Positions 3,483 to 8,062 of a stretch of 64,000 bases of DNA are shown here, in pieces (positions within the stretch are counted from its first letter, which is position 1; the number at the start of each line of letters is the position of its first letter). A model generated the notes under the pieces. It had not been told where the DNA came from and did no database searches. It worked only from the letters and a program-made list of their open reading frames with translations. Location of the stretch: contig CALSNU010000006.1 in assembly GCA_943787795.1 (NCBI GenBank), forward strand, positions 64,001-128,000, written 5' to 3'. This stretch comes from an uncultured bacterium. Lineage in GTDB: Bacteria > Planctomycetota > UBA1135 > GCA-002686595. A program made the translations under genes and the position numbers.

Positions 3483-4943
3483 TCAACGGTCGAGCTCGCC
3501 GGACCCGGCCTGCGATGGAGCCTGCGCTGGAGCCCCCGCTGGAGCCCCCGCTGGAGCCCCCGCTGGAGCCTGCCGGTCTCCGGTCTGCTGCGCACCCGCC
3601 CGTCTAGCGCCCGGTGGGGCTCCGCCCAGGAAGACGCCCACGAGCTCCCGGTCGCCGCGCAGGACGAGGGTGCCGTTCCACCCGGCGATCCTTCCCCACA
3701 TGCGCTTGCGCTCCTTGGGCGGGCTCTCGAAGACGTTGGCGGTGACCACCTGTTGGTAGCGATCAGGAGAGGCGACGCAGAGGCGGAGGATGCCGCTCAT
3801 GCCGTCCTGGATCAGCAGGTAGGGGCCCACCTGGATCATGTGTCCGCGTCCGAAGTAGGGGTCGCGCCCCGTGGACCATTGCTCCTCGCCCTCGAGATCA
3901 AAGCAGCGCAGCCCACCCTGTCCGCGCCGGAGACGGGAGACGTTGGTGTTCTCGTTGGCGAGGAGGTAGATGTGCTCACCGACGACCACGGGTGGGTGAA
4001 GCTGGGACCCCTTCTCGATGTGGAAGTCCTCGGAGACCTGGAACTCCCCTGCGTTCGAGCGTCCGAGGTTCATCAGGGTCGTGCCCCCCGCGTAGCCCCC
4101 CGTGATCACGAAGCGGGTCTCGTCCACGGCGACGGGCGGCGGCACTGGCACGTTGGTGAGCAGCGTCTGGCGCTGCCATCGAAGGGTGCCGGTGCGCGGG
4201 TTAAAGGCGCTGATGAGGACCGGCGCCGGGGAGTTCTCACCTGCGCCCTGGGCGTCGCAGGAGATGAACAGGAGAAACTCCTCGCCGCGCAGCGTCATCA
4301 GCACGGGTTGTGACTGGCTGGTGCCGACGCCGGGGGTCCTCCAGCGCACCTCGCCTGTGCCCTGGTCGAGCGCGACGAGCCCGGTCGACTCCCCGAGCGC
4401 TGGCAGGATGACCAGGTCGCCGGAAAGCAGCGGGTCGGCGGAGTACCCGAAGTCGGGCATCTCGCCGCCGAGGTCGTCGACCAGGTGCCGCCTCCATGTG
4501 GCGGTACGCGTGGCGCGGTCCACGCAGTGCACCGTCCCGAAGCCGCTACACAGGAACACCGACCGCTCGCTGACGGCGGGGGCGGTCCGCGACCCTGCGG
4601 ATTGGAGCCGCCCGGGCTCGGGATAGGTGAACGTCCACAAGGGGGCTCCGTCCAGGATGTCGATCACGCGCAGGGTCTCCCCGACACCGATCTCGCGGTC
4701 CAGCACATAAGCCTCTCGATCGAAGACCACCGCGCTGCCATATCCGGGCTCCAGGGGGACGCTCCAGGCGGCGGAGAGGTCGGCGCTGGCGCGTCCGTAA
4801 CCCTCCGTCAACGACTGGTCTTCCACGTAGTCCGCTTCAGGCGGTGCCAGGAACTCGAGGATCTCCCGCCGGTGCGGCCAGGCCAGGCTGATTCCGAGGA
4901 TCGAGAGCGCCAGGAGCGCGAGGGTTCGTCGTCGAGCGATCAT
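3483..4943 (-). CDS. PQQ-like beta-propeller repeat protein (BamB-like family)
   Basis: From MIARRRTLALLALSILG; repeated blade motifs (GTVHCVDRATRTATWR, LVALDQGTGEVRWR, ISAFNPRTGTLRWQ). Confidence 0.8.
   Translation of the reverse strand: MIARRRTLALLALSILGISLAWPHRREILEFLAPPEADYVEDQSLTEGYGRASADLSAAWSVPLEPGYGSAVVFDREAYVLDREIGVGETLRVIDILDGAPLWTFTYPEPGRLQSAGSRTAPAVSERSVFLCSGFGTVHCVDRATRTATWRRHLVDDLGGEMPDFGYSADPLLSGDLVILPALGESTGLVALDQGTGEVRWRTPGVGTSQSQPVLMTLRGEEFLLFISCDAQGAGENSPAPVLISAFNPRTGTLRWQRQTLLTNVPVPPPVAVDETRFVITGGYAGGTTLMNLGRSNAGEFQVSEDFHIEKGSQLHPPVVVGEHIYLLANENTNVSRLRRGQGGLRCFDLEGEEQWSTGRDPYFGRGHMIQVGPYLLIQDGMSGILRLCVASPDRYQQVVTANVFESPPKERKRMWGRIAGWNGTLVLRGDRELVGVFLGGAPPGARRAGAQQTGDRQAPAGAPAGAPAGAPAQAPSQAGSGELDR
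3514..3573. repeat. 12-bp coding tandem repeat (5 units, encoding APAG/APAQ tail)
   Basis: GCTGGAGCCCCC x3 flanked by GATGGAGCCTGC and GCTGGAGCCTGC. Confidence 0.85.
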
Positions 4944-5150: not shown

Positions 5151-5768
5151 ATGAGACGAACCCTCTTCGCCGCCGTCTTCACGGCGCTCTCGGCCCTCCC
5201 GCTCTTCGCGAGCGGCGACTTCCCACGCGAGAACCCCAACCCCGCGAAGGAGGCGCTCGAGGGCCACGCTCCCCCCGAGCTCCAGGTGGACGGTTGGATG
5301 AACACCGGGGGCGCGCCAATGGACTGGGCCTCCCTCGAAGGGAAGGTCGTGGTCCTCGACTTCTGGGGCACCTGGTGAGGCCCCTGTCGTGGTGCGGTGC
5401 CGGGTCTGAAGGACCTGGCGGCGCGCTACGGGGACCAGGGTCTGGTCCTGATCGGGGTGCACACGGCGAACGGCGGCGAGCGGATGGCCGCCTTCGTCGA
5501 GGAGCAGGGGATCGACTACCCCGTAGCGATCGACCGCCCGGGGAAGCCCACGGTGAGCGCCTTCGCGGTGGACTCCTTTCCTGACTACTACGTGGTGGAT
5601 CGCGCGGGCAAGGTCCGGGTCGCGGACCTCCAGAACGGGGCGCTCGAAGCCACGGTCCAGGCGCTCCTCGCCGAGCCCGCGCCCGTCAACCCTTCCGGCG
5701 GAGTTGATCGAAGCCGCCGAGCGCGCGGTTCGCAAGGACAAGAGGCTGCTGGTGCTCTTCGGGAGTGA
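5151..5768 (+). CDS. TlpA/ResA-like thioredoxin-fold selenoprotein, N-terminal part (Sec TGA 5376-5378, UGPC); probably continuous with 5692..6462
   Basis: Signal peptide MRRTLFAAVFTALSALPLFA; SLEGKVVVLDFWGTW-TGA-GPCRGAVPGLKDL reads through in frame into ORF 5397..5768 (LIGVH, IDYPVAID, FPDYYVVDRAGKVR), giving a complete TlpA fold. Confidence 0.9.
5391..5427 (+). promoter_or_regulatory. Candidate bacterial SECIS element 1
   Basis: Stem GCCGGGTC/GACCTGGC (5399-5406 with 5412-5419), loop TGAAG with G at position 2, 28 nt between the TGA and the loop; pairing extends to 5391/5427 with one mismatch. Confidence 0.7.
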
Positions 5769-6462
5769 CGGTGATCGGGCCGCCTTCAACAAGGTGTCGC
5801 GGCTTGATCGGGCTCTGCGCCGGGAGATCAGCAACGAGTACGAGGCGGTCTCCGCTCCCCTGGGCGGGTCGCTCGCAGCGGCGCTCGGCGTGACCGCAAC
5901 GGAGCCCACTGCCCTGGCGCTGGACGCTGGCGGCGTCCCCCTGGGATCCATCGCCATGGACGGGCTTGACCGGGAGCGCATGTGGGCCTTCGCGCGGGAG
6001 CACAAGGTGGCGAGCGCGGACGCGGAGGTGATCCTCGCAGGCGCCCTCGCCCAGGCGACTCAGCAGAAGAAGCGCGTCCTGGTTCACCTCGGCGCTCCCT
6101 GGTGAGGCTGGTGCTTCAAGCTCGAGGAGTTCCTCGGGCGCCAGGGGGTCAAGGATCCCATGGAGCGTGACTACGTCACGATCAAGATCGACGTGGAGCG
6201 GAACGCGAACGGCGCCGCCGTGGCCAAGCGCCTTCGCGGAGAGCGGAGCGGGGGCATCCCGTGGATGGTCATCCTTGACGCCGATGGGAAGGAGCTGGTC
6301 TCCAGCGACGCGCCCACCGGAAATATCGGCTGCCCGGTCCAGCCCGAGGAGGTGGCCTGGTTTGGTGAGATGGTTCAGCGGAGCAGCATTCGCCTGGGGG
6401 ATGACGACGTCGCGGGCATCCTGGTGGAGCTCGAGGCTTACGCGAAGACCCAGCGGCGCTGA
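5692..6462 (+). CDS. Thioredoxin-like selenoprotein, C-terminal part (motif-less Trx-like domain plus Trx domain with Sec TGA 6103-6105, UGWC)
   Basis: AAERAVRKDKRLLVLFG domain, then ALAQATQQKKRVLVHLGAPW-TGA-GWCFKLEEFL in frame with ORF 6160..6462 (GIPWMVILDADGK, GNIGCP). It lies +1 relative to the upstream part, with no well-spaced RBS before TTG 5704. Confidence 0.85.
6120..6139 (+). promoter_or_regulatory. Candidate bacterial SECIS element 2
   Basis: Stem GCTCGAGG/CCTCGGGC (8 bp, one G-U), loop AGTT with G at position 2, 22 nt between TGA 6103-6105 and the loop. Confidence 0.7.
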
Positions 6463-6622: not shown

Positions 6623-8062
6623 ATGTTCAGTCTGATCTTCGCGGCGTGCATCGCCCCCGGCCTCGGCCCCTTGACCGCAGCGGCAGCGGCAGCGCCTCTG
6701 CCGGCGACGCGGATGGTCCAGGAGGACGGCACACCTGGGGCGACAGGGGGCCGGCCTCCCAGCCTTGTGGTGGTGCTCGCGGATGACCTCGGCTGGGGGG
6801 ACATCGGGTGTCAGGGGCAGGAGAAGATCCTGACGCCGTGGATCGACCGCATGGCGGCGGAGGGCATGCGCTTCTCCGCGGGCTACGCTGGCTCGACGGT
6901 CTGTGCGCCCAGCCGCTCGGTGCTCATGACGGGGATGCACGCCGGCCACACGCGGGTGCGCGGGAATCGTCGGGTCCCCTTGCGCGATGAGGACGTCACG
7001 GTGGCGGAGGTGCTCAAGGGCCAGGGCTATCGCACCGCCCTCTTCGGGAAGTGGGGGCTTGGCAACGCCGGGAGCAGCGGGCACCCGGTACGCCAGGGCT
7101 TCGAGCGCTTCTTTGGCTTCTCCGATCAGCTCCACGCCCACAACTCCTACCCGACGCACCTCTGGGACGGGGAGCAGCGAGTGGAGCTCTCGAACGTCGT
7201 CCCAGGCGAGGGGAAGTGGGGCCAGGGCAAGGCCAGTGAGCGTCATGACTGGGCCCCCGCGCGGATTCACCGGGAGGCCATGGGGTGGCTCCGCAGCATC
7301 TCGGATGACGAGCCCTTCTTCCTGTACCTCGCCAGCACGATCCCACACGCCAACAACGAGGCCGGGTCGGACGGCATGGAGGTGCCGGAGCTGGGGGTGT
7401 ACGCCGACCGGCCCTGGCCCAGGCGTCAGCGAGAGCACGCGGCGATGGTGTCTGCGCTCGATCGCCAGGTCGGCGAACTGCTCGAGACGCTCGCTTCAAT
7501 GGGGCGCGACGAGGACACGCTGGTGATCTTCCTCTCCGATAACGGACCCCACCGTGAGGGCGGTAACGACCCTGACTTCGCTGACTCCAACGGGCCCTAC
7601 CGTGGGATCAAGCGTGCCCTCACGGAGGGCGGGATCCGGGTGCCCTTCATCGCGCGTTGGCCAGGCACGGTCGAGGCTGGGGTCGTGAATGACAGCCCGG
7701 TGCACTTCCAGGATCTGTTCGCCACGGCTGGGGCGCTGGCCGGCGCCGAGGTGCCCGCGGGGCTCGACTCACGGGACCTCCTGCCCACGCTCAGGGGCGC
7801 CAGTCCACCGCCGTCGACGCCCCTGTACTGGGAGTTCCACGAGCGTGGTTCAGCCGAGGCCGTGCGCTTCGGAAGGTGGAAGGCGATCCGCTCGCCGATG
7901 CAGACGGGCTCCATTCGCCTCTTTGATCTCACGGACGACCCAGGTGAGGACCGAGACCTCGCCCTGGGGCCAGACTACACGGAGCGGGTGCAGGAGGCGG
8001 CGCGCTACATGGACGCCGCCCACCTCCCCTCAGCCGAGTTCAAGACCCCGGCTGAGCGCTGA
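6623..8062 (+). CDS. Formylglycine-dependent sulfatase (S1 family)
   Basis: LADDLGWGD, VCAPSRSVLMTG (CxPSR), GYRTALFGKWGLG, SDNG, EGGIRVP. Confidence 0.92.
   Translation: MFSLIFAACIAPGLGPLTAAAAAAPLPATRMVQEDGTPGATGGRPPSLVVVLADDLGWGDIGCQGQEKILTPWIDRMAAEGMRFSAGYAGSTVCAPSRSVLMTGMHAGHTRVRGNRRVPLRDEDVTVAEVLKGQGYRTALFGKWGLGNAGSSGHPVRQGFERFFGFSDQLHAHNSYPTHLWDGEQRVELSNVVPGEGKWGQGKASERHDWAPARIHREAMGWLRSISDDEPFFLYLASTIPHANNEAGSDGMEVPELGVYADRPWPRRQREHAAMVSALDRQVGELLETLASMGRDEDTLVIFLSDNGPHREGGNDPDFADSNGPYRGIKRALTEGGIRVPFIARWPGTVEAGVVNDSPVHFQDLFATAGALAGAEVPAGLDSRDLLPTLRGASPPPSTPLYWEFHERGSAEAVRFGRWKAIRSPMQTGSIRLFDLTDDPGEDRDLALGPDYTERVQEAARYMDAAHLPSAEFKTPAER

Follow-up and report, generated by a model that had tools for sequence, protein, structure and literature searches.

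The locus

Positions 5151 to 6462 of the 64,000-nucleotide (nt) stretch analysed here, referred to below as the window (contig CALSNU010000006.1 of an uncultured planctomycete), hold a gene on the plus strand which, read through two in-frame TGA codons, encodes a predicted exported protein with three thioredoxin-fold domains and two probable selenocysteine (Sec) centers. The initial annotation had proposed, from the sequence alone, that several open reading frame (ORF) fragments at this position make up one coherent protein and that each TGA occupies the place of the attacking Cys in a thioredoxin motif. Both proposals are borne out by relatives in which a single intact ORF covers all three domains and, for the TGAs, also by an orthologue with Cys at both sites. 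The reading frame is open across each TGA and the two Sec sites lie 242 residues apart, in separate domains. The proposed four-part anatomy (signal peptide, TlpA-like domain, motif-less thioredoxin domain, thioredoxin domain) holds in Pfam searches, structural models and alignments, and the proposed length of 436 amino acids (aa) after repair of one frameshift is that of close relatives. Table 1 collects the features. Taken together, we favor, with some reserve, a double-Sec exported oxidoreductase whose first UGA would be recoded by a displaced selenocysteine insertion sequence (SECIS).

Table 1. Features of the gene, in window coordinates (pLDDT, predicted local distance difference test)
Feature	Position	Strand	Basis or remark
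Whole gene, three-domain thioredoxin-fold double selenoprotein, predicted exported	5151..6462	+	436 aa in the population allele and close relatives
Predicted Sec-pathway signal peptide, residues 1-21	5151..5213	+	Sequence, alignment; pLDDT <50 for residues 1-26
Domain 1, TlpA/ResA/DsbE-like thioredoxin domain	5217..5684	+	Pfam and structure matches
UGA 1, predicted Sec76 of U-G-P-C motif (DFWGTW-U-GPC)	5376..5378	+	TGA in 34/35 orthologues, Cys codon in 1
Spacer hairpin A	5388..5430	+	About +10 to +52 after UGA 1; stable, with loop and register of pairing differing among orthologues
Distal hairpin B, 8-bp stem, loop GGU at 5439-5441	5431..5449	+	60 nt past UGA 1; candidate displaced SECIS
C run bearing one extra base (+1 frameshift)	5682..5684	+	This assembly only
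Domain 2, thioredoxin fold without CxxC	5692..6015	+	Model; homology to NWCGWC domain of tandem thioredoxin relatives
Domain 3, Thioredoxin_7/DsbH-like	6016..6459	+	Pfam PF13899 43.9 bits, PF03190 31.9 bits
UGA 2, predicted Sec318 of U-G-W-C motif (LGAPW-U-GWC)	6103..6105	+	Homologue alignments
Predicted canonical SECIS of UGA 2, 8-bp stem, loop AGUU at 6128-6131	6120..6139	+	22 nt past UGA
Additional conserved Cys394 (G-N-I-G-C-P)	6331..6333	+	Alignment
True stop, TGA	6460..6462	+	TAG in two orthologues; no special fold after it (z 0.80)

The N-terminus is signal-like, with a basic start, a hydrophobic core and small residues around a probable cleavage point, and export by the Sec pathway with a cleavable signal peptide is therefore predicted. 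Since the RR pair is not conserved among the aligned orthologues, we read the signal as non-Tat (twin-arginine translocation) and rejected that route; export as a lipoprotein was also set aside, there being no conserved lipobox Cys in the alignment of orthologues. Domain 1 scores 64 bits against AhpC-TSA (PF00578; cut-off 26) and 62 bits against Redoxin, and its model matches SPOA0173, DipZ and ResA with VIA Z scores of 20.1, 19.4 and 18.2 (root-mean-square deviation, rmsd, about 2), as a TlpA-type thioredoxin fold with a W-(C/U)-x-x-C motif. When domain 2 was modeled by itself from 66 sequences, the pLDDT reached 94.8, and the top matches are all thioredoxin folds (Z 11.3, 11.2 and 9.9). The domain is homologous to the NWCGWC-bearing domain of tandem thioredoxin relatives and is, judged by this homology, a thioredoxin domain that has lost its CxxC and should be catalytically dead. 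The additional Cys of domain 3, the fifth Cys/Sec residue of the protein, is found in 20 of the 21 three-domain genes with Sec; the Cys/Cys orthologue has Phe at this position.

Probable selenocysteine at both UGA codons

The source genome (G000; ~4.7 Mb in size, with a completeness near 85% and a G+C content near 70%) contains selA, selB, selD and the tRNA-Sec gene selC, which the initial annotation had suggested searching for, all above their cut-offs, and selD itself carries an in-frame TGA. Throughout the family selA is present in 163 of 174 genomes and in all 55 of those that are at least 90% complete. An orthologue of domain 1 was found in 35 of the 174 (G000 counted), with TGA at site 1 in 34 and a Cys codon in the other (G119). 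TGA is the main stop codon of G000, where it ends 1934 of 2309 long ORFs, and release factor 2 (RF2) is present; since the codon is nevertheless kept in 34 of the 35 genes, with Cys in the remaining one, we do not regard the TGAs as chance occurrences. Contigs from three DNA runs that cover the gene agree with the window at both TGAs, and many homologues of each domain have Cys at the corresponding column. Both UGAs are thus almost certainly decoded as Sec by the SelA, SelB, SelC and SelD of the cell, and we infer that selenium is incorporated at the two sites.

The contrary explanation, that the TGAs are genuine stops or encode Trp under an alternative code, can point to the public gene calls, which end at the TGAs. 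This is the behavior that the initial annotation expected of standard gene callers, and the protein collections correspondingly keep the fragments between TGAs. We give this explanation next to no weight, as the column is Cys in homologues and as the downstream hairpin tracks the TGA and vanishes in Cys versions, while the use of TGA as main stop in the presence of RF2 led us to reject the alternative code.

Candidate recoding signals of the two UGA codons

A bacterial SECIS is described as having a loop of 3-9 nt with a G among its first two positions, at a distance of 16-37 nt from the UGA (PMC13188914, PMC10778597). The hairpin downstream of UGA 2 fits this description in full. It is found in 55 of 59 Sec and in 0 of 26 Cys homologues, and in the alignment 94.4% of cells are paired, with five pairs showing two-sided changes; on this comparative evidence, UGA 2 is served by a predicted canonical SECIS at the ordinary distance.

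At UGA 1 the arrangement is different. The stretch 5388-5449 folds as two abutting hairpins, A then B (z -8.33), and B fits the stem and loop of the consensus but sits 60 nt off, behind the spacer formed by A, a feature beyond what the initial annotation described. Of the 33 Sec genes that lack a strong proximal hairpin, 28 have hairpin B with every pair intact, where synonymous recoding would give 7.3 (the 33 include five genes of g28, a genus whose proximal stem is weak, at 4 bp, and these were excluded from the 28-row alignment A5); the corresponding numbers are one of nine Sec genes with a strong proximal hairpin and none of four Cys genes. In alignment A5, 94.4% of cells are paired and two-sided changes are seen at three pairs. 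Under a uniform rule applied to 42 domain-1 Sec genes, 12 have a proximal and 30 a distal hairpin; the corresponding counts are 63 and 3 of 64 for domain-3 Sec genes, 3 and 2 of 26 for domain-3 Cys genes, and 1 and 4 of 71 for distant Cys TlpA genes. Among 15 held-out genes from other orders, fetched later, seven had only the distal hairpin, seven only the proximal one, one neither and none both.

A paralogous TlpA-like UxxC family (G000 C4:789560, L228/L234; loci L234-L263), present in 52 of 201 genomes of the order, shows the same kind of division. Its members have a longer spacer hairpin, to about +68, and a different distal hairpin whose loop starts at 77-78 nt; of 29 members, 20 have the distal hairpin, seven a proximal one and two both, and those with a proximal hairpin mostly lack the distal one. 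The spacer has z < -2 in 22 of the 29, against none of 36 Cys controls, and two-sided changes occur in 16 cells. Among other selenoprotein candidates of G000, a G-U loop is found at 33 nt in selD and at 38-39 nt in two TlpA-like genes, and some of these candidates have a short hairpin ahead of it. A weak hairpin from +1 to +23 of UGA 1, which RNAalifold returned for 11 genes, was rejected as too close and lacking two-sided changes.

Hairpin B is, in our estimation, likely to be the SelB-binding SECIS of UGA 1. A plausible scenario is as follows. With UGA in the A site, the mRNA past about +12 lies outside the ribosome. Hairpin A would form there, from about +12 to +52, and would loop out about 40 nt; because the folded spacer would remove this length, the GG-loop hairpin B, 60 nt off in sequence, would be placed about one helix width from the mRNA entrance, within the reach of SelB, which could then recode UGA 1. 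A structural model of SelB on the ribosome gives about 13 nt from codon to loop and allows for a hinge (PMC4605307). By extension, it seems somewhat probable that a "spacer-and-loop" SECIS, 60 or 78 nt off and swappable with a proximal SECIS, is used by Planctomycetota in at least two TlpA-like families.

A rival possibility is that both UGAs encode Sec but that hairpin A, with its loop at about 29 nt, is an ordinary SECIS, and that B is accessory (it may pause the ribosome or stabilize the mRNA) or a by-product of the protein sequence. Hairpin A of G000 does conform to the published 16-37 nt model, its loop being GAA, and hairpin A is more stable than its synonymous recodings (mean z -2.16). 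We nonetheless think this improbable, as the loop of A has a G among its first two positions in just eight of 16 three-domain genes (read from folds) and its register shifts, as B is retained where a proximal SECIS is absent and decays where one is present, and as the paralogous family has the same proximal/distal split with a different distal hairpin.

Several observations weigh against our interpretation of UGA 1 and of the protein as a whole. Hairpin A in G000 meets the formal consensus by itself (a 3-nt loop with G as its first letter at 29 nt, in a stable stem), and no pairing register shared among genes was found for it, RNAalifold recovering B only. The two-sided changes in hairpin B are few (5 cells), it overlaps the D-Q-G-L-V codons, possibly conserved for protein reasons, and its loop is GGN and not fixed, GGA and GGC also occurring. 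Four of the 42 domain-1 Sec genes carry both designs and four neither, and the hairpin counts are descriptive and, because kin are not independent, overstate the support. To these may be added that the orientation of domain 1 in the model is uncertain (predicted template modeling score 0.56), that the gene of G000 is frameshifted in the present assembly, that no conserved operon was found among 92 neighboring ORFs from 25 loci, which also offered no clue to a substrate, and that the analysis is wholly computational. Codon conservation, the Cys alignment, the Sec machinery, the folds of domains 1 and 2, and the conservation and mutual exclusion of the hairpins were all computed here.

The frameshift and the population allele

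In the window 727 nt separate the two TGAs, which the one extra base puts out of frame. We searched 17 genomes of the same genus and found the gene in nine; in all nine the distance is 723-741 nt and in frame, both TGAs lie within one ORF of 436-445 aa and the extra base is absent. Contigs of all three DNA runs that cover the position, from three studies, likewise have one base fewer at 5682, in keeping with the single frameshift that had been suggested, and keep both TGAs. Given nine of nine relatives and the contigs of three independent studies without the extra base, the population allele is intact and encodes 436 aa. A programmed frameshift at the junction of domains 1 and 2 was rejected, as neither relatives nor the population show the shift.

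We consider the extra base quite probably an assembly error. The alternative, a true extra base that has recently made the gene a pseudogene in the sequenced strain, is rather unlikely but has some points in its favor: the substitutions that separate the window from the population cluster at 5548-5935 (8-9 substitutions; five of nine at third codon positions, with positions determined by hand), as if the window were a distinct haplotype over this segment, and the gene of another genome, G335 (L214), is likewise broken, by a frameshift and an additional TGA. Against it are the intact allele in three of three DNA studies, the intact state of both hairpins and both motifs in the window gene, and the finding that 16 of 175 G000 orthologues shift frame relative to the intact ORFs of relatives, about 7 of them plausibly mid-gene, although the use of stop-to-stop ORFs inflates the figure.

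Over the whole gene, the pieces of the population contigs differ from the window by 9-10 letters. The substitutions and the extra base share a patch of ~390 nt (5548-5935), which could stem from recombination or from poor polishing. The runs that hold this stretch of the window are mostly marine metagenomes. One RNA run (X16) has contigs over 5683-6457 and none over domain 1; as contigs of an RNA library can stem from DNA, they are uninformative on expression and provide no evidence either way.

Distribution and relatives

Relatives that conserve the TGAs, which the initial annotation had suggested looking for, are numerous. The intact three-domain ORF with two TGAs was found in at least 21 other genomes, of which two lie in another order and the remainder in seven genera of the family, and a two-domain form with both TGAs but without domain 2 occurs in at least 12 loci; these counts are lower bounds, since only top matches were retrieved. 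Among the best 150 of 8000 scored entries of the protein collections, there was one full-length match, the Cys/Cys protein (P0004, of G119), together with fragments of 235-244 aa that run from past the first TGA to the second.

The G119 genome retains selA and selC. In the domain-3 tree its gene is nested among Sec forms, beside that of G223 (support 98/79), which suggests, as far as the sequences can tell, that the Cys/Cys form is a reversion from Sec. The tree has 83 rows, few columns and a midpoint root, and seven near-identical or broken three-domain genes were left out of it. Fusions of domain 1 to domain 3 fall in it as a three-domain clade (99/91), a two-domain clade (100/100) and, apart from these, G074; the same fusion also occurs in a further family. 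Domain 1 is also found alone or joined to unrelated domains, and domains 2-3 are widespread without domain 1. In two genomes, G218 (L215) and G334 (L216), Sec 1 is kept and the domain-3 motif is lost together with the LEEFL segment that encodes its hairpin.

A side observation concerns the tandem proteins made up of domains 2 and 3 (L043-L057, L144-L207): the CxxC of domain 2 is kept in 21 of 24 where domain 3 has Cys and in five of 50 where domain 3 has Sec, a comparison confounded by descent.

Function and neighborhood

As to function, our working model, which we hold at even odds, is that the protein reduces disulfides or acts as a repair enzyme in the periplasm, through two independent sites recharged from the membrane. 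Each selenolate would attack disulfides or oxidized thiols of substrates and the adjacent Cys would resolve the product, with the two sites being re-reduced independently, plausibly by a DsbD-like membrane protein of G000. The latter (861 aa; C2:479457, minus strand, L231) carries a UxxC in the thioredoxin domain at its C-terminus, its gene shows a canonical hairpin at 20 nt, and it is plausibly a candidate electron donor to exported selenoproteins. The reductive direction, the donor and the nature of the substrates are all read from this sequence context.

The initial annotation had envisaged an intramolecular redox relay, and this suggestion found no support, as the domains occur and disappear independently. 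Fusions of domains 1 and 3 in separate clades and in a further family do suggest a functional link, and the additional Cys is retained in Sec fusions. Nevertheless, the existence of domain 1 alone or with unrelated partners, the frequency of domains 2-3 without domain 1 and the two genes that retain Sec 1 with the domain-3 motif gone indicate that the sites are modular across relatives, and because of this modularity an obligatory relay between the Sec centers appears doubtful. An active-inactive-active order of thioredoxin domains is the layout of protein disulfide isomerase (PDI). The protein might accordingly be a PDI-like isomerase or chaperone for exported Cys/Sec proteins, in which the dead middle domain would bind the substrate; besides the layout, Foldseek matches that include a PDI-containing complex (rank 21) and ERp44 (rank 31), and the many candidate exported selenoproteins encoded by G000, are in line with this idea. 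Domain 1, however, is nearest to the reductases ResA, DipZ and DsbE, the score against the PDI family TIGR01130 is 36.6 (cut-off 344) and the PDI structure matches have an rmsd near 20, so we regard the PDI-like role as unlikely and retain the reductase or repair enzyme as our working model.

The gene is flanked by a divergent PQQ_2/BamB-like beta-propeller gene (3483-4943, minus strand) and, downstream, by a sulfatase gene (6623-8062, plus strand), both of which recur as neighbors solely among close relatives. No cytochrome-c biogenesis genes were seen among the neighboring ORFs, and a scan for promoters and terminators returned none of either.

Comparison with known families and literature

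None of the 17 listed curated NCBIfam families reaches its cut-off. The scores (with cut-offs) are 73 (170) for ResA, 52 (123) for DsbE, 40 (230) for TlpA and 42 (210) for StoA, and those for the selenoprotein families WAxxUGC (NF041054) and TsoB (NF045694) are 49.7 (300) and 46.5 (805). The Trx7/PDZ selenoprotein family NF041199 is not matched either; there is no PDZ hit, and the motifs here are UxxC, whereas NF041199 requires CxxU. Domain 1 shares its fold (Z 18-20) with the TlpA, ResA, DsbE and DipZ reductases, which are fed by DsbD or CcdA, and a DsbD-like gene is present in G000; in distinction to those reductases, our protein has Sec for the attacking Cys and two more thioredoxin domains, and it lacks a lipobox and any obvious membrane anchor. 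Domains 2-3 are homologous to the tandem Trx7/DsbH-like proteins annotated as "thioredoxin family protein" (e.g. P0028 of Paludisphaera mucosa), which have CxxC in both domains; in our protein the first of these motifs is gone, the second reads UxxC, and there is a TlpA domain in addition.

The use of Sec by some planctomycetes is known from an earlier report (PMC4807772). In a 2026 review of selenoproteins (PMC13188914), Table 1 gives 119 families, a few with two or three Sec and none with two UxxC thioredoxin domains, and "Planctomyc-" does not appear in the parts of the text covered. Its entries PF08534 ("Redoxin family protein"), cd02966 ("Thiol-disulfide isomerase-like") and PF13098 ("Thiol:disulfide interchange protein") share with our protein a UxxC in a thioredoxin fold and the recoding of UGA by SelB, but they have one Sec each, and here there are two UxxC motifs on different thioredoxin subfamilies in one chain. 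Domain 1 passes the PF00578 cut-off of the entry "Prx-like thiol:disulfide oxidoreductase", which has UxxC or UxxU and one or two Sec; the second Sec of that entry would, as we infer, lie within the UxxU motif, whereas ours is in a separate domain 242 residues off. Two or three Sec in a bacterial chain are known there from TsoB (NF045694), MduS, MbdU and arsenite methyltransferase fusions, and none of these catalogued proteins has two UxxC thioredoxin domains. A search of full-text literature, key subscription papers and database contents excepted, gave no precedent for the family or for a bacterial chain with two UxxC thioredoxin domains. We conclude that the protein represents a real, uncatalogued double selenoprotein architecture, with two UxxC centers on separate thioredoxin domains, found at no fewer than 34 loci in at least four families of Planctomycetota.

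With regard to the SECIS, hairpin B is similar to the element proposed for SaoC, which has a stem of 7 bp and a GGU loop (10.1101/2022.07.06.499078). BSepDB gives 12.6% of its entries as lacking a canonical SECIS and calls for wider models (PMC13326102), and both it and deep-Sep (PMC12013277), in their available parts, mention atypical or missing SECIS elements and do not describe them. The search of full-text literature turned up no distal or bipartite bacterial SECIS, with the original bSECISearch paper and the contents and supplement of BSepDB lying outside its coverage. If the spacer-plus-distal hairpin does act as we propose, it would relax the bacterial distance rule for Sec and explain part of that 12.6%, and it would mean that Sec can be encoded without fixing the residues directly past the active site. 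Selenoprotein prediction would then be improved, and there may be some help for recombinant production, where the SECIS forces changes beside Sec.

Other candidate selenoproteins of the source genome

The 17 candidate selenoprotein genes of G000, many of which have signal-like N-termini, point to a periplasmic redox network rich in selenium in marine Planctomycetota. The candidates comprise five TlpA-like genes (the present one included) and one each described as WUAGC, Trx7-like, AhpD-like, GrdB/PrdB-like, FdhA, Prx-like, SelD, DsbD-like, CTU, WUC, CU and UU, the names other than SelD and DsbD being readings of motifs.

One of these belongs to a family with a vicinal motif (G000 C2:714292-714297, L229/L264; paralogue C1:990334, L230; loci L264-L293), whose members are about 400 aa long with signal-like N-termini and the motif near the C-terminus. 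Among 21 pattern-matched loci (30 fetched) the motif is UU, encoded by adjacent TGA-TGA, in seven, CU in 12, and UC and CC in one each; most loci have one hairpin after the motif, and the CC form has lost it. The family has no NCBIfam match, its Atlas neighbors are Planctomycetota clusters and the UU motif is absent from Table 1 of the review (PMC13188914). A W-U-C protein with a signal peptide (G000 C2:620327, minus strand, L232) has a hairpin loop, AGUUC, that resembles the SECIS of UGA 2. The repeats that follow the W-U-C motif in this protein resemble those of an FG-GAP propeller.

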